NCBI RefSeq assembly: GCF_016026235.1
Contig: NZ_CP065613.1
Direction: 5' to 3' (one strand)
Length of the DNA stretch: 64,000 nt
Source of the DNA: Escherichia coli
GTDB taxonomy: Bacteria > Pseudomonadota > Gammaproteobacteria > Enterobacterales > Enterobacteriaceae
The notes below the pieces were generated by a model, which made no database searches, was not told the origin of the DNA, and saw nothing but the letters and a program-made list of their open reading frames with translations. This document shows positions 1 to 53,496 of this stretch, piece after piece. Position numbers and translations under genes: made by a program. The stretch's first letter is position 1. Every line of letters begins with the position of its first letter.

Positions 1-113
1 TGCGCACCAGTGTTATTCGTGGATTTAGTGCCGTAATCAAACGACGATGTGGTTTTCGTCCCCAAATCCGTACTGGATGCGCTGGCGCTGTGGGTATGCG
101 ATTTAATGCCGTC
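1..113 (-). other. Distal continuation of stf reading frame after in-frame TAG; runs off the window start
   Basis: Same frame as stf stays open for 37 codons after the TAG at 114-116 and translates [37 protein letters not shown], matching the distal part of lambda Stf as I recall it. Confidence 0.7.
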
Positions 114-2693
114 CTATTCCTGAGACAATACGGCCCGACCACTGGTAGGTTTGCCCTTAATCGTCCAGCCACGCATATCAGGGATCACGCCTGACGGATA
201 AGCCGCTGCAAGTTTCGGGTATGCAGATTTGTCAAAAGTCTGCCCCTGCATCAGGGCATAGCCAGACGGAACGGTATCTGATGGCCACGGGATTGGTGCA
301 CCGACTGGATAAAACTCTGCAGGAGGATGAGCCGAGGTGTAAAGCTGCGCCCACGGCGACCAGTTTGCGTCGGTCGTATCCCGTCGTGAACGAATAAATG
401 CCGGAGCATGAGCACCGCTTGTACCACTCCAGCCGATGAGTAACTCACCTTCGCCAACGGCTGTCATCCCTTTCAGGTGAATGATATTTCCATACGCTGT
501 TGGATATCCGTTGTTATACACCTCGTATAACTCAAGACCTGTTGCCCCCTGCGTATTGTCTGTCAGCGCGGTTACCCGACCTTTTGAAGACAGATTAACT
601 GATGATACTGCTGTTCCACCTGACGGTAACGCCCCGATCTCTGATGCCGTTGGCTTATTTCTGGAGTTATAGTCCCTTCGCCAGCCAGGTGAATAATCTG
701 TTCCGTGATTAATATAGGTAAACTGGGCGTTAGTTGTTCCACCACCAGTGGAGGTGGTCGGTGTGGTAATGCGGATCGTCATCGCTGACTTTATCCCCAT
801 TACTTCAATGACAGCTCCGGCGAGATGAATATTACCGCAGTCAGTATCAGTAATGATTTTATTATTGCCATAAGACCAGGAACCCTTGCACATCCAGTAG
901 GGATGGTTAAATGCTCCCTGAGAATCCAGCCACTCGATAAACTGTGCAGTCGTCCAGTTTCCTGTTATTGTGCTTACTGACCCACCAAAGGCACGGCAGG
1001 CACCAATATTTTTCGTAAAGGTGTCTTTGCCAGGGATATCCGCACCGTTCTGATCTTTCTGCAGACGTTTCTCAGCATTGTCATAGGCTGTTTTTACTGC
1101 CTTTGGTGTCGCGGCAAGCGTTTCAGACGTGCTGTTGGTCGCGCTGCTTAGCTGGATTATCCCTTTCTGTGCTGTCGTTGCATCCTGTGCGGTGTATTTC
1201 CCGTTAGCCAGGTCATACGCGGCCTTAACGGCTTTTGGTGTTGCCGCCAGTGACTCGGAAGTGCTGTTAGTCGCACTACTGAGCTGTACTATCCCCTTTT
1301 TCGTCGTGCTCGCATCCTCAAGCGCCACAGCGGATGCAATATCCTCTGCCCGTTTTGCTGCTGTCTCGGCGCGCGTTGCTGCGGATTCTGCCGTACTCTT
1401 GCTCTGTGCTGCCGCCGTCGCACTGCCAGCAGCCTCTGTTGCCTTCGTGGATGCCGTCGTGGCGCTGCCCTTCGCTGCTGACGCTTGTCTGGTCGCCTCA
1501 TCTTTTGAAGCAGACGCCGATGAGGCCGATGACGCCGCCGAACTGGCGGACGATGCGGCAGCCGTTTTTGAGGATTCTGCGCTGGTTTCCGACGCTTTCG
1601 CGTTCGTTTCGGATGTCTTCGCTGCGGAAGCTGACCTCGCTGCTGCGCTGGCCTGTTCAGTGGCTTCGCCAGCCTTCGTTGTGGCTGTTGAAGCGGATGA
1701 TGCGGCGCTTTCTGCCGATTTTCCGGCGGCGATGGCACTGGCTGAGGCCTGCCCGGCACTTGTTGACGCGGCACTGGCAGACGACGCAGCCGCTGTTTTT
1801 GAGCCTGCCGCAGCTGAGGCGCTCTGTCCCGCTGCCGTCTCAGAAGACCTGGCGTTCGTCTCGGACGTTTTTGCCGCCTTCGCGGAATTTGCTGCCGCCG
1901 TTGCCGAGGAAGCTGCGCTACTGGCGCTCGAGGATGCGTTCGTTTCTGATGATTTTGCCGCCTCTTTTGAAGCCGACGCATCCTGGGCTGAGGTGGCAGC
2001 TTCTGACGCTTTCGTAGTCGCGGTGGATGCAGAAGTGGCTGCTGATTGTTGTGACGCTGCAGCATTCGTTTCTGACGTTTTCGCGGCACTGGCACTGGTA
2101 GCTGCCGCGCTTTTTGAGGACTCTGCAGCGGCAGCACTTTTTGATGCTTCAGTGGCCTTTGCTGATGCCGTTCCTGCGCTGGAAGACGCTGACTGAGCCG
2201 ACGACGCGGCCTGTCCGGCTGACGTGCTGGCTGCGCGTGCTAAGCCTGCAGCATCAGTTGCATGGGTTGCCGCCTCACGGGCTGATGTGCCGGCATCGCT
2301 GGCTGACTTCTTCGCGGCTGCTGTGTTCTGTGCCACCGCGGACGCGTTACGCGCCACCTCTTCCACCATCAGTTCAAAACGTCGCAGTGCCTCCGGACGG
2401 GCATCATCCTCCGTCATGGCACCGAGAAAATCATTCAGCGTACCGGGTTGAGAATCTTCATACACGGTGATGGTCCCGGCATGTGACGGCGGGAATCCTT
2501 CCACCAACAGAATAACGCTGTACTGACCGTACTCAACGTCCATGCTGTAACGCCCGGCTTCATCCGGATTTTCTGAGGCCAGCGTGTTCACCACCACCGC
2601 GGTGCTGTTACGTTTTGCTTTCAGCTGGATTGTGCAGTTCTGTACCGGTTTTCCTGTGCCGTCTTTCAGTACACCTGAAATCTTTACTGCCAT
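114..2693 (-). CDS. stf: Side tail fibre protein (lambda Stf / StfR-like), ending at an in-frame amber codon
   Basis: ORF 114..2735; likely start at the internal Met ([27 protein letters not shown]), which matches the lambda Stf N-terminus; long Ala/Ser/Thr-rich repeat region and conserved [41 protein letters not shown] block. Confidence 0.9.
1150..2200 (-). repeat. Degenerate tandem coding repeats (AAKTSETNA...-type) inside stf
   Basis: Repeated [16 protein letters not shown] motifs in the translation; the GC-rich low-complexity DNA produces long overlapping shadow ORFs in other frames. Confidence 0.6.
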
Positions 2694-2756
2694 ATTCACC
2701 CCACAAAAAGCCCGCCTGAACCAGCGGGCTGTCATAACACTGTGTTACCTGGCTAA

Positions 2757-3356
2757 TCAGAACTTATAACCGACACCCACGATGAAACCGTCAGTGCGCC
2801 AGTCGCCACTGCCGGAACCTTCATAAGCAAGGTCAATGGCCACGGATTCGGTCGGGTTAAACTGCACGCCAGCTCCCCACGCCAGAGACGTGTTGCTGTG
2901 GCGACCGTCATCACTTCCGGTCAGCACGTCGTGCGTTTTCCCCTTGTTGTCAGTTACGCGGAGATAATCCCCGGAGAAAGTCGACACACGGCTGTAAGCC
3001 ATACCCGCCATCGCATACGCGCTGAACCATTCATTCACGCGCACAGACGGCCCCACCATCACGCTGAACCAGCGGTTACGCACGGAATCTTCATGCCAGC
3101 GGGTATCGCTGTAACGGGTAAGCTGGCGATTCTTGTCTCCTGCATAGCTGAATGACGTCACCAGCCCCAGTGTGTCCGTAAACTCATAACGGTATTTCAC
3201 GTTAATCCCGTTAAGATCATCGCTGCCGGGAACGTTCGTCGAGGCATGAAGATACCCCGCGCTCAGCGTGGACTGATGTTCAGATGCCCATGCAGGCGCA
3301 CCGGATACGGCCAGACAAATGGCTGCGGACAAAATGGCGGCATAAAGTTTACGCAT
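2757..3356 (-). CDS. lom: Outer membrane protein Lom (Ail/Lom/PagC family), prophage moron
   Basis: 199 aa with signal peptide; C-terminus [23 protein letters not shown] matches lambda Lom; located between J and stf as in lambda. Confidence 0.9.
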
Positions 3357-3425
3357 AATTACCTCTCGCTTTTCTGCAATAAAAAAGGCACCATTTCTGG
3401 TGCCCTTATATGGGTTATAACAATT

Positions 3426-6838
<3,413 letters not shown>

Positions 6839-6895
6839 TCACGCTCCATAAACGACAAAACCGCCCGGAGGCGGTTTCACATAAAACGTTTTTCA

Positions 6896-7543
6896 TCAGC
6901 GACCAATCACCACAACCTGACCACCATCCCCTTCGTCTGCCGTGCGGATCTCCTGAGAGACCACCCGCGACCCCACGCGCATTTCACCGTACAGAACGGG
7001 CAGAACATTGCCCTGGGCAACCATGTTATCCAGTGAGGAGAAATAGGTGTTCTGTTTGCCGTTATCTGTACTTGCTGCCGTGGGCGTCCTGGCTTTCGGT
7101 GCCAGCATCTGCGCCACTCCGCCCAGGATCATACTGGCCCCTGCCGCATACATGCCCGATACAGCCGCGGCACCCAGCCAGCCCACAGGGTTCCACCATG
7201 CCACCGCAATCAGCGCCACCCCCAGCACCACCTGAAACACACTGCCACTTTTAGCTCCCGCCAGACGCGGCACGATGTGGATCACGGCACCATTTGCCAG
7301 CGGCTCATTAAGACGGGCAGACAATTCGGTTTCACCTGCATCACGCCCGGCAATGCGTACCTGGTACCAGCCGTCGCTCAGTTTCTGACGAAACGCCGGG
7401 ATCTGCATGGCCAGCGCCCGGATGGCTTCGGACCCCGTTTTCACTCGAAGGTCGATGCGGCGGCCAAATCGTTGTAAATCCCCGTAAAGGCAGATGCGTG
7501 CCATGCCCGGTGACGCCAGAGGGAGTGTGTGCGTCGCTGCCAT
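6896..7543 (-). CDS. I: Tail assembly protein I (lambda gpI-like); true start probably an internal Met
   Basis: Position between K and J; C-terminal hydrophobic segment; the annotated start overlaps K by about 100 bp. Confidence 0.75.
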   Translation of the reverse strand: MAATHTLPLASPGMARICLYGDLQRFGRRIDLRVKTGSEAIRALAMQIPAFRQKLSDGWYQVRIAGRDAGETELSARLNEPLANGAVIHIVPRLAGAKSGSVFQVVLGVALIAVAWWNPVGWLGAAAVSGMYAAGASMILGGVAQMLAPKARTPTAASTDNGKQNTYFSSLDNMVAQGNVLPVLYGEMRVGSRVVSQEIRTADEGDGGQVVVIGR

Positions 7544-8193
7544 TTGTCGGTGTACCTCTCTCGTTTGCTCAGTTGTTCAGGAATATGGTGCAGCAGCTCG
7601 CCGTCACCACAGTAAATGGCGGCATGATTCGGCACCGATGAACCAAAACAGCACAGCAGCACATCGCCCGGCTGCGCCGCTGACAACGGCACCTGATACA
7701 GCCCTGTGGCCTCCAGATTATCCAGATAGAGATTCTGACCGTTACGCCACCAGTCATCCTCGCGATGAAAATCCGGCATCTCAATCCCCGCCAGATGGTA
7801 AGCATCCCGGAACAGCGTGTAACAGTCCGTCACCCCGTGCTCAAAGCGCCGCCCGGAAAGATGTGGCACACAGCGGAACTTGTGAATCGCCCCCCGGCAA
7901 ACCAGCCACCACGGCAAATCACTCTGCACCTGCAGCCGCCGGTCGGTCTCACTCAGCCAGGGCAGACCACCGGGGTGGCTGTGGACCAGCGCCACAATCT
8001 CACCCTGCATCTCTGCCCGCAGCCAGTCCTCCGGCGACATCCGGAAATACTCCTCCGGCTCACCGGAGATATTCACGCAGGGAAAATATCTTTCCCCCTC
8101 CGGTGTTCTCACCACGAAGCCGCACGACTCCGCTGGCGCACATCGCCGGGCGTGCGCCAGAATCGCTGATTCTGTCTCTGTCATGGGATTCAC
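7441..8193 (-). CDS. K: Tail assembly protein K (JAB/MPN + NlpC/P60 domains)
   Basis: HSHPGG JAMM-type motif and downstream Cys/His peptidase region; start overlaps the L stop by 4 bp. Confidence 0.8.
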   Translation of the reverse strand: MNPMTETESAILAHARRCAPAESCGFVVRTPEGERYFPCVNISGEPEEYFRMSPEDWLRAEMQGEIVALVHSHPGGLPWLSETDRRLQVQSDLPWWLVCRGAIHKFRCVPHLSGRRFEHGVTDCYTLFRDAYHLAGIEMPDFHREDDWWRNGQNLYLDNLEATGLYQVPLSAAQPGDVLLCCFGSSVPNHAAIYCGDGELLHHIPEQLSKRERYTDKWQRRTHSLWRHRAWHASAFTGIYNDLAAASTFE

Positions 8194-8888
8194 TGCGAAA
8201 GTTTGTTAATGGAAAGGAAGCCGCCAAAGTTGCCGACGTTATTGCGAAACTTACAGCCGCTCAGGCATTTGCTGCATTTATCCTTCGTGATATCGGAGGT
8301 CGGCTGGTCATATTCATCCGCGACCGCCGGACCGTGATAACCGCACTCATCACCGCGATAGGTCCAGGTGCAGGTATTAGCCAGCATGATGCGCCCCGGA
8401 AAAACAGCGCCGTCCGTTTCCGTCGGCGTGGACAGTACAAAAGAGGCACTCACCGCGCTCAGTTCGCTGCACTGCTCGATGCGCCAGCGGCTGATCACCT
8501 CCTGCTCCGGATCGGCGTCACTGTTTCCGTTGACGAAGTTCACCGCATCCAGAAAACGGGCGTAAACCTTACGCCGGACCACCGTTCCTCCGACCAGACT
8601 CTGCAGGTCTTCCGCCATCCCGGTGACCATGCCGTGCAGGTTAGAAACCGTCAGTGTCGGACGGGCAGCACTGCCTTTGCCGTTCAGTTCAAATCCCGTC
8701 CCCTGAATGGGATACGCCTGATACTGTCGCCTCTGCCAGGTGACCGGCTCACCTTTATCGTTCTGCTCATTACAGAAAAAATAACGCTCACCACCGACCT
8801 CTGTCAGATCGATTTCCCAGAGCTCCACCCGGACTGACTGCTCCGCACGGGTGCATTCATTCAGTGTTTCCTGCCGGATATCCTGCAT
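8190..8888 (-). CDS. L: Minor tail protein L
   Basis: 232 aa, same length and position as lambda gpL; Cys-rich C-terminus. Confidence 0.85.
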   Translation of the reverse strand: MQDIRQETLNECTRAEQSVRVELWEIDLTEVGGERYFFCNEQNDKGEPVTWQRRQYQAYPIQGTGFELNGKGSAARPTLTVSNLHGMVTGMAEDLQSLVGGTVVRRKVYARFLDAVNFVNGNSDADPEQEVISRWRIEQCSELSAVSASFVLSTPTETDGAVFPGRIMLANTCTWTYRGDECGYHGPAVADEYDQPTSDITKDKCSKCLSGCKFRNNVGNFGGFLSINKLSQ

Positions 8889-9217
8889 CAGTTCACCACC
8901 TGTTCAAAATCGGCCGTTACAGTCACCCATAACGCCCCCACGCTTGCCGACCATTTACGACAAACCACCCTGATCGGTTTCCAGTCATAAGGTGGCGTCC
9001 ACTGAAATGCGCGGACGCCACCGTGCCGTTCCAGAAAGGCTTTTAAAGATGGGTGTTCACATTTACGAACACGTATCGTCACGCTGTAAATCGACAACTG
9101 GTTATTCAGTCCCGCCGCACGACGCTGTTCATAACCATCGCCCAGCTTCACTGTCACCACTTTCGGCTCTGATACCACATTCATATCCGGGCGCACTTTC
9201 CAGTGAAACGTCTCCAT
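8888..9217 (-). CDS. M: Minor tail protein M
   Basis: 109 aa, same length and position as lambda gpM. Confidence 0.85.
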   Translation of the reverse strand: METFHWKVRPDMNVVSEPKVVTVKLGDGYEQRRAAGLNNQLSIYSVTIRVRKCEHPSLKAFLERHGGVRAFQWTPPYDWKPIRVVCRKWSASVGALWVTVTADFEQVVN

Positions 9218-12200
9218 TACCGATATGCTCCACTTAACCGACCACCATCACGGGCCTGCTGTTGCATAAAGTCCGCTGCCGCTTTTTTCCCAAGGTCATA
9301 AACCACCTTCAGGGCAGCCGGACCTATCTGCCCGTTCGTGCCATCGTTATTGATCTCGATGTTGTACTGCGGGGCAAACATCGCCATACCTGAACCACCA
9401 ATATCCGCCACAACCCCCAGCTTACCGTCAGCACCACGACGCAGTGGCAGAATGGCTTCAGGTCCAGCTTCCCCCATCACACCCGCGCCTTTTGCAAAAG
9501 CAAAAAACGTCGGACGGTTAACCACCGTGCCACTGTAACGACTCAAATCAGCAGACTGATAAATCCCCCCATTGGCATTCAGGGAAAGGCTGCTGAGATC
9601 AAATCCCAGTACACTGCCAATCCCTTTTATCGATTTCATCATGGTTGCCTGCGCCAGGATTTTCGCCATATCTGACAGCACCGAAGAGGTGAAGGATTTG
9701 AAGTTGAGTTTGCCGGTAGTGACAAAAGTTGCCAGGCCATTTCCCATGTTGCTGAAGGCTGATGAGAACACCTGTTCTGCTGTTCCTGCCGTATTGTCTG
9801 CATCCACGGTAAAATCCTGAAATGCACGCAGGACTCCGTTTTTCCAGTTACCCTGCACAACTTCAAGCTGTTGCCAGTAACGGCGATTCTCATTCAGTTG
9901 TCGGTTCAGGCTCTCCGTCAGCGCCTGCTCGGCCTTTCTGTAGTCATCCGTGTTATATGTCCCTTTCTGCTCACTATCCCGCCTCAACTGCTCCAGCTGT
10001 TGCTGGTATTTCTGGCGAAGACTCAGTTGTACCTGATATCGCTGCCGCTGCTGATCACCCATACCCACCGTGGCGATATCCAGGTCATGTTGCTGACGCT
10101 GAGCGCGCTCTTCTTCAGCCAGTTGACTGGTCAGCTGAATTGTTTTTTTCTTCAGATCGTTGAGTGCCGTTTGTTTCTGAAGCTCCTGCTGTTTTACATC
10201 CAGCAGCGTCAGTGCCTGAATCAGCTCATTCTTACGGGCCAGCACACTCTTTTCATCTGCCGTCAGCTTTTTCCCGTCCAGGTCGCTGATGCGCTGCTGC
10301 AGGGCCAGAAGCTGTTTATGCGCTTCAGTCATCCTTTCAGTGGCAATGCCTGCTGACTGTCTTGCAGCAGCAATCTGTCCTTCCACCTGTGCCTGTTGCT
10401 GACTGTACTGCAGCAATAACCGGGTGGCCTCATCATTACGGGTTTCGCGTGTTTTTTTCTTACCGGATGCCAGGGCTTTCTCGTAACGTTCATTTTCACG
10501 TTGTATCGCCGCATCCCTGACAGCCTGGTCGGCGTACTGCATGGCATTAATACGCGCAATTTCACGCTGATGTCGTGCTGCTTCCGTTTCATTCATCCGG
10601 TTCAGTGCAGCATTTTCAGCATTACGTCGTTTCTGTTGCTCCTGATAATTCCGCTCTGCCTGCTCTTTTGCATCCTGCAAATCCTTCTGGCGTTTTTTCT
10701 CCTGAAGATCGTTAAGACGCTGCTGATCGTATTCAACCTGAGAAGATGATGCCGTCCAGGGGAGTCTTTTCGCCCGCGACACTTTCTCCTGTAAAGCGGT
10801 AATCTGTTCATCCAGCGAGTCTTCACGACCAATATTCATGGCCGCATCCCAGAAACGACTCCACAAATCAGACAGATACTTCAGCGTACTGCCAAGCGCA
10901 TTGAGGTTATTATCAATATCCGCAGTACGCCGACCGGTTTCCTCTGCCAGTGCAGACATGGCTATCCGTGCAGCATCACTGGACCGTCCCTGATCCCCAA
11001 GGACACGTATCTGCTCAAGCTGAGTGGCAGTAAGAAAATGCAGCTCATTGTCCAGAGCCTTCGCGGCATTTACAGGATCATCCTTCAGCCGCTTAAACTG
11101 ATTTATGGTATCGCTGACCGACTGGCCAACCGATCGCTCCATCTGTGCGGCAGCTCTCGCCACCATACCGATATCGTTTCCACGAAATGCACCACTCCCC
11201 ACCACCTGCGCCAACGCACCGGCTGCAGCATGTTGCGTGATACCATTCCCGGAAATAGCACGACTGAGCGTCCACAGCTGCCCGGCAGTGACTCCGGCAT
11301 AATGCCCCGTCAGCGACAACTGGCGGTTAAATTCTTCCCCCTCCTTCTGACCGTCATACCAGGCTTTACCCAGACCATAGACGGCCGCGGCAATACCGCC
11401 AATAACCCCGCCAAGCATCATGCCTTTCGGTGACATCAGTGCGCCTGTCCATCCGGCACGGTTAGCCAGCGTTATCCCGGATCCCCTCAGCGCCCCTAAA
11501 TTGCCGCGGGCCAGTTCACCTATCAGAACGCCTATCTCCTGGCGGGCTGCTGCACTTTTCAGACCCAGCGAATGCGTGGCTTTTCCTGCCTGCTCCATTT
11601 TGCGGATATACACTTCTGCAGCACTGCTTACCCCCAGCTGGGCTGCCCTGGCGCGAAGCAACTCAGAAGATGAAAGATTCTGGCGGGTTGCCTGCTCTTT
11701 AAGCTGACGGATAAACGCCACTTTCTGTCGGGTAGCCTCTTCCTCAGCCTGTGTAAGAACACGGGTTTTCGCAGTAACCTCAGAAATCAGCGCCAGATAA
11801 TCCTGCTGACCAATCCCGCCACTGTTTCTGGCCTGTCGGATCTGCTGCTGAATACGCTGTAATTCCTGCAGCCCCGCACTGGCCTGTTTCACACTGTCAA
11901 TCTGACGATAAAACGCAGCAGCCGCTTTATCCTGAGCCTCCGCCAGAGCCATGGCCTGCGCCTGTTCCTCGCGCATTTTCTGGCTCAGCGCCTCCATGCG
12001 CTGGCGGGTTTTCTCCACCTCGCGGGCCATGCGTTCATGAGCCTGTGCGTTCTTCTCCACCGTCTGCGCATGGACGGATGCGGCTGTTGCAGCCGAAGAA
12101 GCCGCCTGCGTTGTCTGCCGGGCGGCCTGAGTCTGACGCTCCATAAAACGCTGCATACGGGCAGAAGACCGTTCTGCATCGCTGGCTGCACCATTCAGAA

Positions 12201-12312
12201 GGTTTTTGATACGGGGAATTTCATTTTTAAACTCTGCCGCATCAATCCCCAAATCAATGACCAGGTTGGCTATCTGGTCCATAACGCACACCTCCGGAAA
12301 TACCTTCCCCAA
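9217..12312 (-). CDS. H: Tail tape measure protein H (start possibly at 12282)
   Basis: About 1030 aa, coiled-coil-rich, Gly-rich C-terminal part ending NNDGTNGQIGPAALKVVYDLGKKAA... similar to lambda gpH. Confidence 0.9.
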   Translation of the reverse strand: MGKVFPEVCVMDQIANLVIDLGIDAAEFKNEIPRIKNLLNGAASDAERSSARMQRFMERQTQAARQTTQAASSAATAASVHAQTVEKNAQAHERMAREVEKTRQRMEALSQKMREEQAQAMALAEAQDKAAAAFYRQIDSVKQASAGLQELQRIQQQIRQARNSGGIGQQDYLALISEVTAKTRVLTQAEEEATRQKVAFIRQLKEQATRQNLSSSELLRARAAQLGVSSAAEVYIRKMEQAGKATHSLGLKSAAARQEIGVLIGELARGNLGALRGSGITLANRAGWTGALMSPKGMMLGGVIGGIAAAVYGLGKAWYDGQKEGEEFNRQLSLTGHYAGVTAGQLWTLSRAISGNGITQHAAAGALAQVVGSGAFRGNDIGMVARAAAQMERSVGQSVSDTINQFKRLKDDPVNAAKALDNELHFLTATQLEQIRVLGDQGRSSDAARIAMSALAEETGRRTADIDNNLNALGSTLKYLSDLWSRFWDAAMNIGREDSLDEQITALQEKVSRAKRLPWTASSSQVEYDQQRLNDLQEKKRQKDLQDAKEQAERNYQEQQKRRNAENAALNRMNETEAARHQREIARINAMQYADQAVRDAAIQRENERYEKALASGKKKTRETRNDEATRLLLQYSQQQAQVEGQIAAARQSAGIATERMTEAHKQLLALQQRISDLDGKKLTADEKSVLARKNELIQALTLLDVKQQELQKQTALNDLKKKTIQLTSQLAEEERAQRQQHDLDIATVGMGDQQRQRYQVQLSLRQKYQQQLEQLRRDSEQKGTYNTDDYRKAEQALTESLNRQLNENRRYWQQLEVVQGNWKNGVLRAFQDFTVDADNTAGTAEQVFSSAFSNMGNGLATFVTTGKLNFKSFTSSVLSDMAKILAQATMMKSIKGIGSVLGFDLSSLSLNANGGIYQSADLSRYSGTVVNRPTFFAFAKGAGVMGEAGPEAILPLRRGADGKLGVVADIGGSGMAMFAPQYNIEINNDGTNGQIGPAALKVVYDLGKKAAADFMQQQARDGGRLSGAYR

Positions 12313-12978
12313 GATGCATCAGTTCTTCGTCCGTTCGCTCCGGTATCCCGTTCTCTTCCGGTAAAAGGCTGAAATCAGCCACCGCAGCATCACTGCTGCC
12401 GGACACCATTCTCACGATCAATGCCTTCAGCGAGGCAAACTGCGCATCCATCCACACATCACTGAAGCTCTGCATCCGGAAATAATCGCCCCACTCACCA
12501 AGCTCAGTGGCCGACATTTCCGACAGCATCCGCCGCCAGTCTGCCCGCCTGAACTCCCGGGCAAGCCGCATGACAAACTGCATTTCCCGCGTCAGGACTT
12601 TTCCGGCGTCAGCACCTCATGCTCCAAATCCCCGGCATTCTCAATGGCTCCCATACCGCTCAGCGACAGAACCATCTCCGCCCCCGCTCCCAGGGCATCA
12701 TACGACCATGTTGTAATAACGGATGCGCAAAGCGTCTCAACATCCTGAGACTGTTCCGCATTCCACAGTGAGCGGGAAACCAGCCAGGCATTGATATCCA
12801 TCCCCATCCGTAGAAAAGCAATCTGTCGTTCAGCCTCCGGCAGTTCTCCCTCTTCGGCATCAAACTTTGCCGTTCGCTGCTGAACAAACGCCAGATATTC
12901 AATTCTCTGCAGCCCGGACAGCTCACTGAGCACCACGGACTGCTTTTCATAATTAAACGTGCCCTGTTTCAGAAACAT
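12254..12978 (-). CDS. Tail assembly chaperone G-T, expected to be made by -1 frameshifting near the G stop
   Basis: The -1 frame is open across the G stop (…AGKVLTREMQFVMRLAREF…) and continues as ORF 12254..12583. Confidence 0.6.
12592..12978 (-). CDS. G: Tail assembly chaperone G
   Basis: Starts MFLKQGTFNYEK like lambda gpG (MFLK...); lies immediately upstream of H. Confidence 0.8.
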   Translation of the reverse strand: MFLKQGTFNYEKQSVVLSELSGLQRIEYLAFVQQRTAKFDAEEGELPEAERQIAFLRMGMDINAWLVSRSLWNAEQSQDVETLCASVITTWSYDALGAGAEMVLSLSGMGAIENAGDLEHEVLTPEKS

Positions 12979-13037
12979 CATGTTCTCCGGATGCAAAAAG
13001 CCCCGGATAACCGGGGCAAATGATGAGTATCGTCCTG

Positions 13038-13669
13038 TTAACCTGCGGCGCTGACAGCCACCGTAGCCACTGCCACAAAATCGCCGTCAGAAGTCATGCC
13101 CACAATGCTGACACTGCCCTGCTTCACGCCTTTCACCGTGGCAGTCTGTGGATCTGTCGAATGCACACTGATCGCTTTGTCACTGGCTCCGTCAGGTTTT
13201 ACTGTAAAGGTCAGCGTGGTGGTTGCTCCCGCTTTGACACTGGCAGATGCCGGTGCCATCGTCAGCCCGGTAACGCCCACGATTTCAGTGCCTTCCTCTG
13301 CCAGATACGGAAAACATCAACAGTACCGTTGGGATATTTGATACGAAAAGCGCAGACTTCACCGGAGTCGAACAACTGAACCAGTTTTTTCTGCCCGCTG
13401 TCCCCCGGACGCCAGGCCAGCGTCGCCGAAGTATCACCGACTGATTTCTGCCCCTGGGTTGTCGTTTTCCAGTCTGCATCTTCATCATCGAGATAAGTGT
13501 CATCTTCTGCATCAGCGGTCATTTCGCCAGGTTGCAGATCCTTCACCATCGCAAGACGCAGCCAGTCAGTGTCCGATAAAGGGTTCGCAAACGCATCGCC
13601 CTTGCCGGTATACATCCAGAACGTCGTTCCCGCACCTTTCGTTTTTGCCAGTGGATTTGGTGTGGTCAT
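13038..13669 (-). CDS. V: Major tail protein V, split into two overlapping frames (13262..13669 and 13038..13280)
   Basis: N-terminal part [20 protein letters not shown]...NGTVDVFR resembles lambda gpV; the Ig-like C-terminal domain ([24 protein letters not shown]...) is in another frame. Confidence 0.8.
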
Positions 13670-13679
13670 TACCACCTCC

Positions 13680-14093
13680 TTAATTCGTGTACGTGATCTG
13701 GTACGTGATTTCCGCCATCGCCCAGGTGGCCATCTCATTATCACGTTGATAGTTAAAACCGAGTGGGATCAGGGTGTCGATGAGTCCGGAAAGTGCTGGT
13801 ACATCATTCAGGGCCGGGAAAATGGTGCTCTCCATCCACATATCCAGCTCTGAATCCGGTGCCTGTGCCCGGATGAAGACAGCAATATGCAGAACAGCCT
13901 GCCAGTCATCTTCATCCGTCATTTTTCCGGTGTACTGAGCATCACTCAGCCACACCGCCACGGCAGGCAGTTCCTGCGCATCAACAAATGCCGGAAGCCC
14001 GTCAAAAAACGTGGCGCTGTCTCCACACTGTTCCCGAAGGCGTGCCAGTACGACCTGGCGGATTTGTGTATGTCGGTTCATCGGGTCAGCCAT
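13680..14093 (-). CDS. U: Tail tube terminator protein U
   Basis: ATFFDG...AVAV...PDSELD.WMES motifs similar to lambda gpU. Confidence 0.8.
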
Positions 14094-14656
14094 AACCTCA
14101 GTTGTTGTTTCAGTGCATACCCCAGCTGTTTCGGCATTTCCGCAGCAATGATGCGGTCGCGGGCATCTTCAAATGTCTGTGTCAGCGGTCCGGACAGCGG
14201 GATTTTCACCACATCAATGGGGTAACGATTTTTGCCATCAATACGCCGCATCACATGCCAGCGACCATTCGCCAGTTGCTGAATAAACGCATCCCGGAAA
14301 AGATATTTACCCACCTTCAGCACACTGCCACGGTACTGCAGTTTTCCACCACGCCGGGCCAGTCTGACCCGGGCTGTCCCCAGCTTAATGGCAGGCAGAT
14401 TGCCCCGGTTAACGCGGATCCTGGCCGTCATTTTTCCTGACGGACTGGCTTTAAACACCCGGACACGCTGACGTACCAGTTTCAGGGGGATCCCTTTCAC
14501 CTGGTTATCTCCCGCAACGGTATTCCCGGCAACCTGCCGGGTGGCAACCGAGACCGCTTTCTGTGCCACACGGTTTATCGCCCATGCGCTGGCCTGTGGC
14601 ACCATACGGGTATCAAGGCTGTTCAGATTGCGGATGGCATTCTCAAGCCCCTTCAT
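14078..14656 (-). CDS. Z: Minor tail / tail completion protein Z
   Basis: 192 aa; RWHVMRRIDGKNRYPIDVVKIPL and C-terminal KQLGYALKQQLR resemble lambda gpZ. Confidence 0.8.
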   Translation of the reverse strand: MKGLENAIRNLNSLDTRMVPQASAWAINRVAQKAVSVATRQVAGNTVAGDNQVKGIPLKLVRQRVRVFKASPSGKMTARIRVNRGNLPAIKLGTARVRLARRGGKLQYRGSVLKVGKYLFRDAFIQQLANGRWHVMRRIDGKNRYPIDVVKIPLSGPLTQTFEDARDRIIAAEMPKQLGYALKQQLRLWLTR

Positions 14657-14667
14657 CCCACACCTCT

Positions 14668-14943
14668 TTACTCAATAAAGATCATTGGCTTACCGTTAAA
14701 GCGTTCATGCCGTGTGACCGTCCATTGTTGTCCGTCATAAACAACGCGATCACCGCGCCGTGGGCGGTATCCCGAAGAAAACACCACCAGAGAGACCGCA
14801 GGTCCGGACAGAGCATTCAGCTCTGCCAGTGTTTCTCCCGGGATCACAGTCATATCGACATCATTAATCGAGGCTGTCTTTCCCATCTTTCTGACCGTGA
14901 TAGCATCCATACGCGCTGCCAGCCGGGAAAAGGGATCAGACAT
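14668..14943 (-). CDS. Head-tail joining protein (FII-like)
   Basis: 91 aa, positioned between the head module and Z as lambda FII is; call is by position and size. Confidence 0.55.
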   Translation of the reverse strand: MSDPFSRLAARMDAITVRKMGKTASINDVDMTVIPGETLAELNALSGPAVSLVVFSSGYRPRRGDRVVYDGQQWTVTRHERFNGKPMIFIE

Positions 14944-15259
14944 TGAGTTTTACCGGCACTTCTTCTGCACTGGTTCCGGCATCTGCCCAGACAACCCCGA
15001 CCAGCGGATCAGAGCCGCTGTTAGTCAGCTGAATTTTTCCGGACTTCAGATAAACCTTCTTACCCGTTTTCATGTCATCCGTTTTCAGCTTAGGCAGCAT
15101 AAACACACCTTCGGTCATGCCGTCGCCTGTTTCACCCTGTGGAATATCGGTCAGCGCCACCGCAAAAACATCGCCCACCTGCACCAGATCTCCGCTGCTG
15201 ATGGCTGCACTGGCAACAATCGCCACCGTTTTTCCTTCTTCTACAAAATTCTTTGCCAT
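14936..15259 (-). CDS. Small phage head-associated protein (DUF2190-like), probable start MAKNFVEEGK
   Basis: About 107 aa immediately downstream of the capsid gene; tentative family assignment. Confidence 0.45.
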   Translation of the reverse strand: MAKNFVEEGKTVAIVASAAISSGDLVQVGDVFAVALTDIPQGETGDGMTEGVFMLPKLKTDDMKTGKKVYLKSGKIQLTNSGSDPLVGVVWADAGTSAEEVPVKLNV

Positions 15260-15345
15260 AACTGTCTCCGCACAGCCCCGTTCAGGGGCTGATTTCAGGT
15301 ACAAAAAAAGCCCTTACGGGCCATCAGAGATGTTGTCTGCGACGT

Positions 15346-17057
15346 TTACGCCGTACATTTCACCAGACCGCGGTGATCAACTGGCGCGACACCGGCGTCA
15401 ATACGCACTTTCGTTGTCACGCCATCCACACTGAAGCCCTCCATCTGATCAATATATGGCGTATCCACACCGTTGAGATAAGCCACTTCAATCGTATCGG
15501 AGCCTTTTGACGCAGCCAAGTAGAAGGTGGTCTGGCTGTTATCATCAAGACGAGGCTCTGCAATAACGGTCGCAAAATCTTTCACCGGGTTAATAATACC
15601 GGCGTTAATGTCAGCCCCCTTGACACTTGAGGAGCGAATGACCTGGTTAGCAACAGACTCCATCGCCGTCGGTACCAGTACGAACGCAGGACGAATATTC
15701 AGATGACGCTCCCCCTCTTTCTGAACGCGCATCAACTGGCGGGCTTTATCCAGCGATGCCACGTCCATTGCAGCGCTCTCCAGTACGTTTGCATGTTTCG
15801 CTTTATCGAACAGACTTACATTATCTGTGGAGATTTTCGGGTTAGACGTCAGAATGGCATAAACCAGATCGGCAATAGTGGATTTCGCCGCACGGCCCAG
15901 TTTCATCGGGACATCGGTCAGCATATTCAGATCATCATTGATAATGGCCTGACGGGTGATACTGAACAGCTCGCCATAGGTCGCCAGTGCAATAGTGGCC
16001 TGTTTATCTCCGGTGGTGACGTATTTATATTCCGCCCCTTCACGCACCTGACGCAGAGCACTGAAGCCCCCCATACCCACACGATGGGCAATTTTAAAAT
16101 CAGACAACTGACCTTTCCGCGTCCACTGTTCATAGGTTTCAGGGGCATCTTCCCAGCCCTGCAGAATGGCTTTGTTCGCAACATCCAGCAGAATATTACC
16201 GAAGTCAGACGTACTGTGTGTGAACGCCGCACCGACCATCTGCATCGGGTTATAACCGGAAACCCCAATACCCCGTTCAGTCAGTGACATACGGGCATAT
16301 TCACGCAGGGTCATCCCGTTGTAGACATTATCACGTTCGGTTTTTTCAAATCCGGCACGCGCCATCAGCGCCTGGCGGATCCCGTCCCCCACAAAATTAC
16401 CGTTACCGGCATAAATATGAGCCGGGGTATTTTTATTGGATGGCGTGGACTCGCGCCCCATCTCGTTCAACAGCTTTTCACGGGCCTGCTCCAGCGAACA
16501 TTCAGGATCGGCAAGACACTGAGCCTGCAGCGTCTGATAACGCCCGCCAAACATGGCAAACAGATCATTAATACCGTTTACACGCGCTTTTTGCTCTGCC
16601 AGTACCTGCGCACGGATGCTGTTTTCATCCACCACGGGTGCTGCTGCCTGCACTGGCGTCCGGGAGGCTTCAGATTCATTATCCTGTACGCGTGGAGCAC
16701 TGTTGCGTGGCGGAGTAATCATGTTTCGAATGGATTCCGGCATCTTTTTAAATTCCTCTGTACGTTTTGACTGAATACATGCCATTGCCTTAACGGCTGG
16801 CGTTACCTGATCAGCAAATCCATGTGCCAGACATTCGGCACCGGACATCCAGGTCTCATCCGCCAGCATGGCAGCAATTTCATCGGTGGTTTTCCCGGTT
16901 TTCTGTGCATAAGCGGGTAACAGAACCGCCTCAACTTTATCGAGCAGGTCGGCATAGGTGCGCATGTCCTCCGCATCACCGCCCGTAAAGCCAAATGGTT
17001 TATGAATCATCATGAAGGTGTTTTCCGGCATAATGACCGGGTTTCCTACCATCGCAA
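15346..17057 (-). pseudogene. Prohead protease / major capsid protein fusion (HK97-fold), 5' end cut by IS600-like element
   Basis: N-terminal part looks like the C-terminal half of a ClpP-like prohead protease, followed by a capsid-like domain; the frame runs directly into the IS end at 17058. Confidence 0.75.
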
Positions 17058-17100
17058 TGAGGTGTACTGGCAATAGCGGACACTACCATTTGTTCTTTTT

Positions 17101-17919
17101 TTAAGCAGCCATCTGATGATATTTTTCCCTGAAGGCTGCCGGGGAGATATTCCCCAGACGAGAGTGACGACGCTGACGATTGTAGAAAATCTCAATGTAT
17201 TCCCGTATTACTGAGATGGCTTCATCCCGGTTATTAAAACGATAGTGGCTCAGGCTCTCATTTTTCAGCGTTCCCCAGAAGCTTTCCATCGGAGCGTTGT
17301 CGTAACAGTTACCTTTACGCGACATTGATGTTTTCAGACCAAACTGCTCCTGTATGACCCGGTAATCGTATGCGCAGTACTGTGAACCTCGATCAGAGTG
17401 GTGGATTAGCCCGGCAGGTGGGCGCTGGCTCCTGAGCGCCATAAACAGGGCTTTACCTGTCAGCTCTTTTGTCATGCGCTCTCCCATGGCGTAGCCGACA
17501 ATTTCGCACGTATAAACATCTTTGATGCCAGCGAGGTACAACCATCCCTCCTGTGTGGCAACATACGTCAGGTCCGCCACCCAGACCTGATTTGGTGCTG
17601 TAGGAGCGAACGTCTGGTTCAGCAGATTTGGCGCAACTGGCAGATTGTGGTTCGGGTTCGTAGTCGCTCTGAACTTGCGTTTCTGCTTACAGCGTAGCCT
17701 TAGCTCCTTACGAAGACGTGCCAGTCGGTCACGACCAACGATGATGCCATTCTCTGCCAGCTCCGTCTGGAGCCGCCGGGTTCCATATGTTTCGCGAGTG
17801 CGGATATGTGCCACCTTAATCTCCAGTTTTAGCCGCTCATCACTTTGTTTTCTGTCTGAGGGTTCATGCTGTACCCAGTTGTAATAACCGCTCCTGGATA
17901 CACCAAATACCTGACACAT
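17101..17919 (-). CDS. IS3-family transposase OrfB (DDE integrase-like catalytic domain)
   Basis: 272 aa with HSDRGSQY and later E; the -1 frame joins orfA to orfB through an A7 run (about 17995-18005). Confidence 0.9.
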   Translation of the reverse strand: MCQVFGVSRSGYYNWVQHEPSDRKQSDERLKLEIKVAHIRTRETYGTRRLQTELAENGIIVGRDRLARLRKELRLRCKQKRKFRATTNPNHNLPVAPNLLNQTFAPTAPNQVWVADLTYVATQEGWLYLAGIKDVYTCEIVGYAMGERMTKELTGKALFMALRSQRPPAGLIHHSDRGSQYCAYDYRVIQEQFGLKTSMSRKGNCYDNAPMESFWGTLKNESLSHYRFNNRDEAISVIREYIEIFYNRQRRHSRLGNISPAAFREKYHQMAA

Positions 17920-17954
17920 CGCTTCAATGGGAAATTGTTGTCGCCATTGTTCGA

Positions 17955-18257
17955 TTAACGCGTATTTTTCAGCGACTCCTGTGCAAAATACGCTGTTGCT
18001 TTTTTTAATATATCTCGCTCAAGGCGAGCTTCATTTAACGCCTTACGCAGTTGCAGAATTTCAGATTCCAGTTCAGCCACCGTGCGGGAGCCAGGAGTAC
18101 CGAGCCCTTTTCTGGCGGCGGTAACCCATTGTCCTAAAGTGCCTTCAGGAAGGGATAATCGGGAAGCGCCTTCACTGATCGAAAGTTGATTTTCAAGAAC
18201 CGTTCTGACAGCTTCGGCTTTGAACTCTTTAGAGTAACGTTGGGTTTTTCTGCTCAT
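17955..18257 (-). CDS. IS3-family transposase OrfA (helix-turn-helix)
   Basis: 100 aa, MSRKTQRYSKEFKAEAVRTV..., typical IS3-family OrfA. Confidence 0.9.
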   Translation of the reverse strand: MSRKTQRYSKEFKAEAVRTVLENQLSISEGASRLSLPEGTLGQWVTAARKGLGTPGSRTVAELESEILQLRKALNEARLERDILKKATAYFAQESLKNTR

Positions 18258-18321
18258 TATTAGCTCCTTCTGATGCCATTCTATTTCAGGAAGGAGTGTC
18301 CGTTAAACTCAGGCTACCTCA

Positions 18322-18405
18322 GTTTTCCCTGACTCTTACGCCTTTATAAACAAACCAGATACGTAATTTCCCTCCATGGCTTTCCACGCCTGTCGGATAT
18401 TTCAT
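18322..18405 (-). pseudogene. Phage integrase N-terminal remnant (about 27 codons), truncated by IS600-like element
   Basis: Minus-strand translation MKYPTGVESHGGKLRIWFVYKGVRVREN is the characteristic N-terminus of lambdoid tyrosine integrases, directly downstream of xis. Confidence 0.6.
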
Positions 18406-18439
18406 TTCAATTTCTCTCATTAGTTAGTGTGGCTTTTAG

Positions 18440-18691
18440 TCAAGTAAGATGACGTCTTGGTCTTGCTGATGCCTGGCGCTCAATCCAGCGATCAATTTCT
18501 TCCAGGTTGTAAAAGCATGGACTGTTATCCCATGGCATACCGTCATGAGCGACATGCTTATATTCCCTTCCTTCCATAAACGATTTTTCCCGGGCCTTTT
18601 TTAACGTACCTTTTTTTATTCCTTTCAGCGCAATTAACTGCTCTTCGGATACCCATTTGCCGGGAGAGACAATCATGATTACTTCGCTCAT
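18440..18691 (-). CDS. Putative excisionase-like protein
   Basis: 83 aa, immediately upstream of the int remnant on the same strand; assignment mainly by position. Confidence 0.5.
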   Translation of the reverse strand: MSEVIMIVSPGKWVSEEQLIALKGIKKGTLKKAREKSFMEGREYKHVAHDGMPWDNSPCFYNLEEIDRWIERQASARPRRHLT

Positions 18692-18775
18692 CGATTTCTT
18701 TATCTCTTACATCAGACGAGCGCCGGTTGCAGAATACCAGTCACAACCGGCGACAGTTGAACATTAAGAATCAGC

Positions 18776-18904
18776 CTGACTCGGGATCAGTTTTTGCCAG
18801 ATAACTGAAACGTATTTTGCCTGGTAACGGGCGTCATCAAGTGCATTATGGCGCTCACCTTCGAATGGAATAGCCGTTCTGGCATCGAAGTCTATGGCTT
18901 TCCC
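18776..18904 (-). pseudogene. C-terminal fragment of a DnaQ-like (DEDDh) 3'-5' exonuclease, 5' part removed by IS10-like insertion
   Basis: Translation ...FEGERHNALDDARYQAKYVSVIWQKL contains the H-x-A-L-D-D-A exo III motif; the frame runs into the IS end at 18905. Confidence 0.45.
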
Positions 18905-20198
18905 CTGAGGAATCCCCAGAAAACAAGACAGGCATAGTGAGATGTGATCTAATTGATTGTGCTAACAATTTCAAGGAGATCACCACTATGCCTGCACGTT
19001 CATTATGCCAAAATTTCCTTAACAACATACTGGCCCCTTTGCATCTTTACCGTCAAAAATCACTGATTGACGCAACTAATGCTGTAATAAATGGCGCTTC
19101 CCTCACACTTACCAGTATCGGGCGTCATTTAACCGGTACGGCATCAGTTAAAAACAAAATAAAGCGGGTGGATCGACTGTTGGGGAATCGACATTTGCAA
19201 AATGAGGTTTCCACCATTTTTCAGCGAATTACCCAAAAGATTACGCGGGGAATGTCTCGTGTTGTGATACTCATTGACTGGAGTGCTTATCATGCCTCTC
19301 GTTTTCAGCTTTTGCGGGCAAGCCTGGCATGTGACGGGCGTTCTTTACCGTTGATGAGTTGTGTCGTTCCATCATCACAGACAGCGAATGCAGATGTACA
19401 TGAGCGTTTTCTGGAATCGCTTGCTGAGTGCTTTTCCCCCGGGACTGATGTCATTGTTATTACAGATGCCGGTTTTCAGGGGCGATGGTTCCAACAGCTC
19501 CGCTCCCGTGGCTGGACCTATATTTGCCGGGTACTGGGCAATCATTATTACAATGTTGGTAATGGCTGGGAAAAGGTGTCGGACTCAGGCACAAAAGCAT
19601 CAACGACAGCAATTTATTTAGGTGAAGGCCTGCTGGGTCGAGATAAAAATGCACAACATGAAGGGCATTTTTATCTTTATAAAAGTAAGCCTAAAGGTCG
19701 TAGATTTAAACGCTCGAAGGAAAGAGCAACCAGACCATCGGTGACGGCTAAAGCTCGTACTGCCGGGAAATCACCATGGTTTATTTTCACAAACAGTACT
19801 GAGTTCTCGCCAAAACAGGTAATGAAATTATACAGCCGTAGAATGCAAATTGAGCAAAATTTCAGGGATGAAAAAAATCCTCGCTGGGGATTTGGACTAC
19901 GGTTTGGTGCCAGTCATTCATCCGGGCGGGTCACGGTATTGAGTCTGATCGCAACATTAGCCAGTATCATTATGTGGTTAAGCGGTTTCAGCCTGGAAAA
20001 CAAAGGGATACATCATAAATATCAGGCAAATACAGTGAAGCACAGGCGAGTCATCTCGTTATTAAAACTGGCGGAGAATGTGATTCGACATTCTCCACTC
20101 ATACTAAACACACTGTCACTTGACGCAGGGCTGAAAGTTCTACAGCAACGGTATACCAATATGATAATGGTTTACTAAATTTTCTGGGGATCCCTCAG
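18905..20198 (+). mobile_element. IS4-family insertion sequence, IS10-like, copy 1 (1294 bp)
   Basis: Terminal inverted repeats CTGAGGAATCCCCAGAAAA (left) and CTGAGGGATCCCCAGAAAA (right, reverse complement), resembling IS10 ends; single transposase ORF; no 9-bp direct repeat in the flanks. Confidence 0.85.
18988..20178 (+). CDS. IS4-family (IS10-like) DDE transposase
   Basis: ATG at 18988 preceded by AAGGAG; motifs KRVDRLLGNRHL, ILIDWS, VITDAGF and YSRRMQIEQNFRD align with the IS10 transposase DDE residues. Confidence 0.85.
   Translation: MPARSLCQNFLNNILAPLHLYRQKSLIDATNAVINGASLTLTSIGRHLTGTASVKNKIKRVDRLLGNRHLQNEVSTIFQRITQKITRGMSRVVILIDWSAYHASRFQLLRASLACDGRSLPLMSCVVPSSQTANADVHERFLESLAECFSPGTDVIVITDAGFQGRWFQQLRSRGWTYICRVLGNHYYNVGNGWEKVSDSGTKASTTAIYLGEGLLGRDKNAQHEGHFYLYKSKPKGRRFKRSKERATRPSVTAKARTAGKSPWFIFTNSTEFSPKQVMKLYSRRMQIEQNFRDEKNPRWGFGLRFGASHSSGRVTVLSLIATLASIIMWLSGFSLENKGIHHKYQANTVKHRRVISLLKLAENVIRHSPLILNTLSLDAGLKVLQQRYTNMIMVY

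Positions 20199-51133: not shown

Positions 51134-53496
<2,363 letters not shown>

Follow-up and report, generated by a model that had tools for sequence, protein, structure and literature searches.

An IS-bounded remnant of an mEp460/Qin-type lambdoid prophage at the ydfJ-rspB site of Escherichia coli

What kind of phage left a tail module at the edge of this Escherichia coli sequence, and what put it out of action? Within the stretch of 64,000 nucleotides that we analysed (the window), a first-pass annotation had described positions 1-18904 as a mosaic lambdoid prophage decaying through a series of separate lesions. A cryptic lambdoid remnant in decay is indeed what its gene content, its lesions and a loss of about 25 kb point to. 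We conclude, with a probability of about 0.93, that positions 1-18904 and some 3 kb to their left are a dead mEp460/Qin-type lambdoid prophage at ydfJ/rspB, wrecked by IS activity. A remnant of this kind is already known: it is an ordinary dead prophage.

A tail block from the mEp460 group

The anatomy of the remnant and its phage family can be read directly from alignments. Positions 1-17057 are collinear with phage mEp460_ev081 (LR597641.1), at 98.4% identity across 100% of the query, and about 96% identical to mEp460, Ayreon, cdtI and phi458; altogether, 11 phage records cover at least 80% of this query. PMC10448788 describes mEp460_ev081 as temperate and functional, and as carrying Qin-like dicB/dicF/rem genes. 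The tail and head genes of the window all lie on the minus strand, and those that remain whole are these:

2757-3356, minus strand: lom, Ail/Lom outer-membrane protein, intact, 199 aa (Pfam Ail_Lom, E=1e-119; 97% amino-acid identity to phage lom over the full length)
6896-7543, minus strand: I, tail assembly protein, intact (Pfam Lambda_tail_I; length equal to that in comparison loci L001 and L003)
7441-8184, minus strand: K, tail tip protein with JAB and NlpC/P60 domains, intact, 247 aa (Pfam; 100% amino-acid identity to phage K)
8190-8888, minus strand: L, minor tail protein, intact (Pfam; phage comparison)
8888-9217, minus strand: M, minor tail protein, intact (Pfam; phage comparison, 108 of 109 residues matched)
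9217-12282, minus strand: H, tape measure protein, intact, 1021 aa (Pfam TMP_2, TMP_4 and Tape_meas_lam_C; 98.9% amino-acid identity over the full length)
12254-12583, minus strand: T, tail assembly chaperone (Pfam Phage_tail_T)
12592-12978, minus strand: G, tail assembly chaperone (Pfam Phage_TAC_2)
13680-14081, minus strand: U, tail terminator, intact (Pfam; phage comparison)
14078-14656, minus strand: Z, minor tail protein, intact (Pfam; phage comparison)
14668-14943, minus strand: head-closure protein of the Pfam Gifsy-2 family, intact (100% amino-acid identity to a phage protein)
14936-15259, minus strand: cement/decoration-type protein (DUF2190, Phage_cement_2), intact (Pfam; phage comparison)

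Pfam matches above the cut-off cover Z, U, V, G, T, H, M, L, K, I, J, Lom and the N-terminus of stf, in lambda order, and the tail module is therefore lambda-type, as had been claimed. The earlier reading of H, L, M, K, I, U and Z as intact holds as well: these genes, together with G, T, lom and the two head-tail genes, give gap-free, full-length protein matches to functional phage at 93-100% identity, and H has an exact copy in public records. Within the G and T block (12254-12978), the reading frame of T is -1 relative to that of G, as in lambda. Rfam and tRNA scans of positions 1-21000 gave no matches.

The mosaic label is another matter. In fact, the same combination of head and tail is native and collinear in the isolated phages mEp460_ev081, mEp460, Ayreon, cdtI and phi458, and a ClpP-capsid fusion head with a lambda-type tail is also found in prophages of 932 complete E. 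coli genomes. The label is thus unsupported, because such a head joined to a lambda tail is normal in mEp460-group phages.

Broken genes and their recurrence

Four genes of the block are interrupted in this sequence, as read by direct comparison:

1-2693, minus strand: stf, side tail fibre gene, with an amber codon (Pfam phage_tail_N, Phage_fiber_2 and Collar; codon-by-codon comparison with stf of L001)
3426-6835, minus strand: J, tail tip protein, split into 948 aa and 171 aa (one G missing from a G5 run at 4029-4033)
13038-13669, minus strand: V, major tail protein, broken (85-bp deletion at about 13311 and 27-bp deletion at 13133, both relative to L001)
15346-17057, minus strand: ClpP-like prohead protease/major capsid fusion, 5'-truncated (Pfam CLP_protease and Phage_capsid_4; L001 comparison)

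In V, the 85-bp deletion is flanked by imperfect direct repeats and shifts the frame, while the 27-bp deletion is in-frame. What remains is an N-terminal piece (13262-13669) of 121 native and 14 out-of-frame residues, whose exact 135-aa product is present on 6 public contigs, and a second piece (13038-13280) that carries a Big_2 domain. We considered that the lesion might spare all but a dispensable C-terminal Ig domain and rejected this idea: the N-terminal piece covers 107 of the 135 positions of the tail-tube profile, so that the end of the tube domain is lost too, and the frame is shifted. The stf gene starts at 2693 and its 3' end lies beyond the window edge. A CAG to TAG change at 114-116 turns codon 860 of 1024 into an amber, with homology persisting downstream of it, and the exact 873-aa ORF product occurs on 4 public contigs.

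The capsid gene has lost its first 313 nt (104 codons) and its start codon. Homology to the 675-aa fusion begins at codon 105, abutting the end of an IS600 at 17058 that cuts the gene, so the 5' truncation noticed at first is real. CLP_protease (a partial match, profile positions 91-179 only) and Phage_capsid_4 share a single ORF, and RefSeq calls the homologues a fusion protein; the head gene is thus a protease-capsid fusion, as proposed, with a presumed HK97 fold. The missing part contains the 'AASMAS' stretch, which we take to be the site of the protease catalytic serine. Against solved capsids, the remaining protein gives a weak match (E=1.4e-4) to those with a Mu GpT domain.

How reproducible is this damage? 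The PacBio assembly GCA_900449985.1 is identical to the window across both the IS600 and the ISEc60 junctions described below, except for one base. The capsid-IS600 junction is the same in loci L005, L007 and L014. Four Illumina drafts (LSGI-LSGL) have the V deletion in common and the capsid-IS600 junction in part, GCA_902503985.1 has the stf amber, and the copies of the tail block within the lineage are identical. J is the exception. Besides a 3-bp in-frame deletion at about 3540, it carries a 1-bp loss that is the sole difference from GCA_900449985.1 (about 23.7 kb in two overlapping loci) and from GCA_902503985.1 (5.7 kb), and in both assemblies (loci L003, L004 and L005, otherwise identical) the frame is intact at the G5 run. 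The frameshift reported in J is therefore present in this sequence and missing from both otherwise identical assemblies that cover J. Because these keep the frame, it is unconfirmed as a real lesion and would be either a very recent change or a homopolymer miscall; one "lesion" of the list may reflect just a homopolymer-length call.

Are the lesions then sequencing or assembly artefacts that hide an intact prophage in the real genome? The single J base in its homopolymer is what such an explanation can draw on, and for J alone it may succeed. It fails for capsid, V and stf: related isolates, assembled from PacBio or from Illumina data, show the capsid-IS600 junction, the 85-bp V deletion and the stf amber again (GCA_900449985.1, CABWDS for stf, and the LSGI-LSGL drafts), and the junctions around the int scrap, ISEc60 and rspB are unchanged in GCA_900449985.1. 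The artefact explanation is already largely refuted, and we hold it to be extremely improbable.

IS elements and the missing phage DNA

The damaged genes were offered as the account of inactivation. The lesions exist, but the dominant cause was missed: IS600 and ISEc60 bound a loss of about 25 kb and an inversion. To the right of the capsid gene, the sequence reads:

17058-18321, minus strand: IS600 (IS3 family), 1,264 bp (99.7% identity to annotated IS600 copies)
17101-17919, minus strand: orfB, within IS600
17955-18257, minus strand: orfA, within IS600
18322-18904, minus strand: inverted int'-xis-exo' scrap, 583 bp (99.5% identity to mEp460_ev081 26006-26589)
18420 to 18322, within the scrap: int', 33 codons (99 nt), cut by IS600
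18440-18691, within the scrap: xis, intact (Pfam DUF1233 excisionase)
18764-18904, within the scrap: exo', last 47 codons of the exonuclease gene (translation)
18905-20198, plus strand: ISEc60 (IS4 family), 1,294 bp, with IS10-like ends CTGAGGRATCCCCAGAAAA (100% identity to the annotated ISEc60 of FDAARGOS_943; DDE_Tnp_1)
20199-20824, minus strand: rspB, 5' 626 nt only (alignment to rspB of L001 and FDAARGOS_943)

The integration site, too, is directly visible. It is the Qin site, between ydfJ and rspB, which in strain H9Ecoli is occupied by a fuller prophage. In the assemblies identical to the window, the left flank of the remnant is ydfJ' and the right flank rspB; the attR junction, beyond the left edge of the window, was read in these assemblies, and in locus L003 phage homology stops at phage coordinate 24771, immediately before ydfJ'. 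The right end originally given to the remnant, 18904, is exact. The left end was merely the window edge: the remnant continues for about 2,987 bp, with the rest of stf, tfa, pin, ydfK, ynfT and attR. On the other side, 20199-64000 is collinear core chromosome, and the rspB locus lacks the 3' 394 nt of rspB, the ydfJ 5' fragment and attL. FDAARGOS_943, the closest complete genome, has an intact ydfJ, and its prophage site is therefore empty.

In phage coordinates, 4597-24771 and 26006-26589 survive out of 45,865 (mEp460_ev081). The absence of portal, terminase and lysis genes, already noted, is borne out by tblastn with proteins of a fuller prophage, which found no homologues in the 64 kb; one small phage ORF gave a weak match at 52133-52240 (E=8e-4), in core chromosome, which we put down to chance. 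Also missing are the late promoter and the Q antiterminator region. This is thus no intact prophage: besides portal, terminase, lysis genes and 104 capsid codons, it has lost attL with the host DNA beside it, and int is down to 33 codons. This truncation of int, which the first-pass annotation had also noticed, is the same in GCA_900449985.1, the single assembly that spans the junction. The scrap, ISEc60 and rspB' junctions agree base for base with that assembly.

Neither element looks like a simple insertion. A simple IS600 insertion should leave a 3-bp target duplication, which 2 of 3 complete comparator copies have; here the flanks are CAA on the left and GTT on the right. We read this absence as the mark of a probable rearrangement junction, not as doubt over the identity of IS600. 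Likewise, a 9-bp duplication is expected for ISEc60 and is missing here, where the element forms the right edge of the deletion. In FDAARGOS_943, a 99.9%-identical relative, ISEc60 sits at the same rspB nucleotide with a 9-10 bp repeat, and in the opposite orientation. The rspB site may or may not be a general hot spot for ISEc60, FDAARGOS_943 being the only one of the complete genomes compared with an insertion there. Finally, alignment with the phage genome is +/+ for the scrap and +/- for the tail block, and the two are thus in opposite orientations.

From these junctions we infer how, and in what order, the IS elements acted. The phage would have integrated at its usual ydfJ site beside rspB. 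IS600 and ISEc60 would then have brought about no fewer than one inversion and one deletion, at a cost of about 25 kb. Lost in this way would be the 5' end of the capsid gene with portal, terminase and the lysis cassette, the genes for Q/antitermination, immunity and replication, the greater part of both exo and int, and attL together with host DNA reaching into rspB. Left behind would be a promoter-less tail block, presumably not expressed, and the 583-bp inverted scrap between both IS elements. Smaller lesions would have been added, namely deletions in V, probably by slippage, and a nonsense codon in stf, the one-base loss in J being confined to this sequence. An intermediate strain, with the inversion and without the deletion or the reverse, was not found. 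Loci L015 and L016, retrieved by an exact search for the 561-aa truncated capsid ORF, were rejected as intermediates: they are ordinary prophages with portal upstream and V intact. In principle, an IS600 rearrangement could have carried the lost head and packaging segment to another place in the genome instead of deleting it.

Other routes to this structure can be envisioned. ISEc60 and the inverted scrap might stem from one inversion-type intramolecular transposition of an IS4-family copy in the prophage exo gene towards a preferred rspB target. If true, this single event would account for the inverted scrap, the absent duplication and the opposite orientation of ISEc60 in FDAARGOS_943. IS4/IS10-type elements are thought to be cut-and-paste, an inversion product from one copy being unusual, and we consider this route unlikely. 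Alternatively, the scrap may derive from a second prophage in tandem at the same att site. O121 RM8352 and O26 RM10386 do have an exo-xis-int module beside a Qin-type tail block, right at its attR end; yet in the identical assemblies ydfJ' follows right after attR with no second prophage on that side, and mEp460_ev081, the best match of the tail block, also matches the scrap, through its int region, at 99.5% identity. Moreover, int in the O121/O26 tandem lies on the strand opposite the tail genes, so that an inversion would be needed regardless. A tandem origin is unlikely. The IS600 in int is not one shared with O26 RM10386 either, which keeps 354 nt of int against 99 nt here.

Could the tail block instead be a domesticated module under selection, either as a reservoir of tail or host-range genes with which superinfecting lambdoid phages recombine or as a supplier of Lom? 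Thirteen late-module genes are full length (M at 108/109 residues) and 93-100% identical at the amino-acid level to functional phage, and lom is intact. High identity to live phage is, however, equally expected under recent inactivation; V breaks off within its tube domain, stf is cut short, J is split in this sequence, and the late promoter and Q region are absent. Selection on the block is very unlikely. A residual use of the tail genes, for example as recombination donor for incoming lambdoid phages, may be possible because most are intact and near-identical to those of live phage. In our preferred reading of a dead prophage, lom and xis are the sole intact stand-alone genes. To judge by its sequence, the remnant should be incapable of excision, replication, packaging and lysis and of forming a tail tube, and would be inert cargo.

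Comparison with known systems

The value of this analysis is mainly one of annotation: the locus should be labelled a defective mEp460/Qin-type remnant bounded by IS600 and ISEc60, not an unusual mosaic, and no response to induction is expected. It also illustrates how a prophage is hollowed out, and host genes next to it are harmed (here ydfJ and rspB), when IS elements expand in an E. coli lineage.

Compared with IS-eroded prophages of the EHEC/Shigella type, nothing fundamental sets the remnant apart: there, too, IS600 and IS4-family elements sit at deletion or inversion junctions without target duplications, and O26 and O121 relatives likewise have IS600 inside int. Only the specific junctions differ, the capsid-IS600-int' or exo'-ISEc60-rspB' junctions being found in 0 of 5,426 complete E. 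coli genomes. O121 strains with 94% apparent coverage were rejected as carriers of the same arrangement, this coverage arising from joined IS600 copies located elsewhere.

With mEp460_ev081 and the mEp460-Ayreon-cdtI-phi458 group, the remnant shares the gene order from capsid fusion to stf, and its intact late genes are equal in length. Of the 45.9 kb of mEp460_ev081, however, no more than about 20.8 kb survive in it: the genes for terminase, portal, lysis, Q, immunity and replication are missing, as are attL and the greater part of exo and int, while V, stf and the capsid gene, and in this sequence J, are broken and an IS600 is inserted. With lambda it shares the tail order Z-U-V-G-T-H-M-L-K-I-J-lom-stf, each matching a lambda-named Pfam family, whereas its head is a ClpP-protease/capsid fusion (Phage_capsid_4, Mu gpT-like) with a DUF2190 cement protein in place of C/Nu3/D/E. 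Qin of E. coli K-12 occupies the same ydfJ'-rspB site, has the same right-arm genes ynfT, ydfK, pin, tfa and stf (present in the window-identical assemblies), and is also a defective lambdoid remnant. K-12 Qin kept its early/dicBF and lysis region and lost its head and tail genes; the remnant described here is the converse, with tail genes kept and early and lysis regions lost.

Surviving genes and extent of loss

An unbroken minus-strand gene block spans window positions 1-17057 (gene content from the ORF listing and Pfam scans), followed to the right by insertion sequences, a scrap of phage DNA and a host gene:

1-2693, minus strand: stf
2757-3356, minus strand: lom
3426-6835, minus strand: J
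6896-7543, minus strand: I
7441-8184, minus strand: K
8190-8888, minus strand: L
8888-9217, minus strand: M
9217-12282, minus strand: H
12254-12978, minus strand: T and G
13038-13669, minus strand: V
13680-14081, minus strand: U
14078-14656, minus strand: Z
14668-14943, minus strand: head-closure protein (Gifsy-2 family)
14936-15259, minus strand: cement protein (DUF2190)
15346-17057, minus strand: ClpP-protease/major-capsid fusion, 3' part
17058-18321: IS600, right of the structural block
18322-18904: scrap of 583 bp (first 33 codons of int, xis, end of an exonuclease gene)
18905-20198: ISEc60 (IS4 family, IS10-like ends)
20199-20824: host gene rspB, 5' 626 nt, directly right of ISEc60

In the scrap, the excisionase is intact (83 aa, DUF1233) and the DEDD-type exonuclease gene keeps only its final 47 codons. 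The products of H, G, T, M, L, K, I, U, Z and lom, and of the two head-tail genes, match the proteins of the functional Escherichia phage mEp460_ev081 gap-free, full-length (M over 108 of 109 residues) and at 93-100% amino-acid identity; the first-pass annotation rightly took H, L, M, K, I, U and Z to be intact. Measured against the 45,865-bp genome of this phage, the remnant retains 4597-24771 and 26006-26589 and nothing else; ~25.1 kb is missing. The first-pass remark that portal, terminase and lysis genes are absent also holds, as a search of the 64-kb window returned no homologue of portal, terminase, holin, lysozyme or spanin. The element is without attL, Int, the repressor/Q circuit and replication, lysis and packaging functions, and also without a capsid start codon, an intact tube protein and the late promoter. 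Given these losses, we predict that it is not inducible and makes neither particles nor tails; lom and xis are its only intact stand-alone genes.

Lesions and their recurrence

The capsid gene is indeed truncated at its 5' end: homology begins at codon 105 of 675, precisely where IS600 ends, and the fusion has neither a start codon nor the 'AASMAS' stretch, which, by analogy with ClpP/S49-type proteases, we take to be the site of the catalytic serine. In V, the frameshift seen earlier comes from an 85-bp deletion between imperfect direct repeats (CTCTGCCAGATACGGA / CTCAGCCAGCCACGGA), and a second, in-frame deletion of 27 bp between 10-bp repeats affects the Ig-like domain. Of the N-terminal product, 121 residues are native. 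Mere loss of a dispensable Ig domain is ruled out, because the tube-domain profile match is itself cut to 107 of 135 positions. The stf amber is a CAG to TAG change at 114-116 (codon 860 of 1,024) with homology going on downstream; since laboratory lambda itself has no functional side tail fibres, this amber alone would not be lethal to a phage. The truncation of int, also correctly read, leaves 33 codons.

Could these lesions be assembly errors? By exact-sequence look-up, the amber-truncated stf ORF occurs on 4 contigs, whilst 6 have the V fragment of 135 aa. The V deletion is common to four Illumina drafts, at least one of which terminates within the IS600 adjoining the truncated capsid gene. 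The PacBio assembly GCA_900449985.1, compared over two overlapping loci (window 1-12734 and 3263-23669) that take in both IS and the scrap, shows zero mismatches and one gap. Recurrence in independent assemblies thus shows that the lesions in capsid, V, stf and int are real and lineage-defining. The sole difference from GCA_900449985.1 is the J homopolymer base: the window does lack one G of the G5 run at 4029-4033, but GCA_900449985.1 and GCA_902503985.1 both read G5. The J frameshift, private to the window sequence, is therefore doubtful as a lesion: either it arose very recently or the homopolymer was miscalled.

Qin integration site and probable IS-mediated rearrangement

The prophage integrated at the Qin site. 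In H9Ecoli, the interval from ydfJ' to rspB contains a more complete prophage, and in window-identical public assemblies the leftward continuation comprises the rest of stf, tfa, pin, ydfK, ynfT, attR, ydfJ' and ydfI, with phage homology stopping at phage coordinate 24771, ~2,987 bp beyond the left edge of the window. From 20199 onward the window is collinear core chromosome. The closest complete chromosome, FDAARGOS_943, is 99.94% identical over 20199-57000, and its attB is empty, since ydfJ is intact there. The deletion extends beyond attL into the host, with collateral damage to two genes: rspB is reduced to its 5' 626 nt, the 3' 394 nt being gone, and ydfJ, left of the window (15714-16997 of L003, a public-assembly locus matching the window apart from the J base), has lost its 5' end and is beyond restoration because the attL side is deleted. 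uidC is intact in the window (uninterrupted target at 59008-59016); FDAARGOS_943 has an IS1 there.

Four observations appear to point to IS-mediated rearrangement, not simple insertions. IS600 has no target duplication, its left flank reading CAA and its right flank GTT; 3-bp duplications flank 2 of 3 complete comparator copies. ISEc60 has none in the window, and at the same rspB nucleotide the FDAARGOS_943 copy has CAGTCAGCC(C) on both flanks. The scrap is inverted, lying +/+ to the phage genome versus +/- for the tail block (in the canonical prophage int is directed towards rspB), and the deletion passes attL. Two equally economical histories would fit these facts. In one, the segment between oppositely oriented IS600 copies, one in the capsid gene and one in int, would have inverted before a deletion adjacent to ISEc60; in the other, an ISEc60-associated inversion of exo'-xis-int-attL-rspB3' would have preceded deletion between IS600 copies. 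No intermediate strain turned up among the complete E. coli genomes searched or the contigs with the truncated capsid ORF.

ISEc60 itself is oddly oriented. Comparing window 18905-20198 with L011 10707-12000 of the 99.9%-identical FDAARGOS_943 chromosome, we find that, at one and the same nucleotide, rspB 5' meets the transposase-stop end in the window but the start end in FDAARGOS_943. A 9-10 bp target duplication is present in FDAARGOS_943 and absent in the window. Since homologous recombination cannot exchange the IS end abutting a flank, the difference requires a transposition event of its own. One possibility is that a preferred target was hit independently, in a lineage with IS expansion; the ~34 ISEc60-matching places in the FDAARGOS_943 chromosome suggest such an expansion. 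An inversion-type event is also possible, and would account for the inverted scrap as well. Among 5,426 genomes, only FDAARGOS_943 has ISEc60 at the rspB site. A second copy (63101-64000, truncated at the window edge) lies upstream of uidA in the orientation opposite to the first; FDAARGOS_943 has it at the same place and in the same orientation.

Related prophages and phage family

At the Qin locus, decay of this prophage type is common and takes differing routes. The fuller prophage of H9Ecoli (L001 25232-28296) is itself defective, with a frameshifted tape measure gene and an IS3-disrupted int, and in that of O121 RM8352 (L002 25496-27523) the capsid fusion contains an internal stop and the terminase is truncated. 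In O121 (L002 1-6600) and O26 RM10386 (L010 5055-10423), a second prophage, with exo-xis-int, sits in tandem at this ydfJ att site, and both strains have IS600 inserted in or beside int. The int region seems to have been struck repeatedly by IS600, at differing positions.

The first-pass annotation correctly spotted a defective prophage; insertion sequences, the main agent of its gutting, were absent from that account, and the label "mosaic" is not supported. The structural block is 98.4% identical across its entire length to mEp460_ev081, described as a functional temperate phage with Qin-like dicB, dicF, dicAC and rem (PMC10448788); identity to mEp460, Ayreon, cdtI and phi458 is ~96%. Matches covering at least 80% of the query occur in 932 complete E. 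coli genomes. The capsid-fusion head joined to a lambda-type tail is therefore native to a known phage group and no mark of mosaic decay. Window 1-18904 is an ordinary defective prophage, whose family and integration site are both known.
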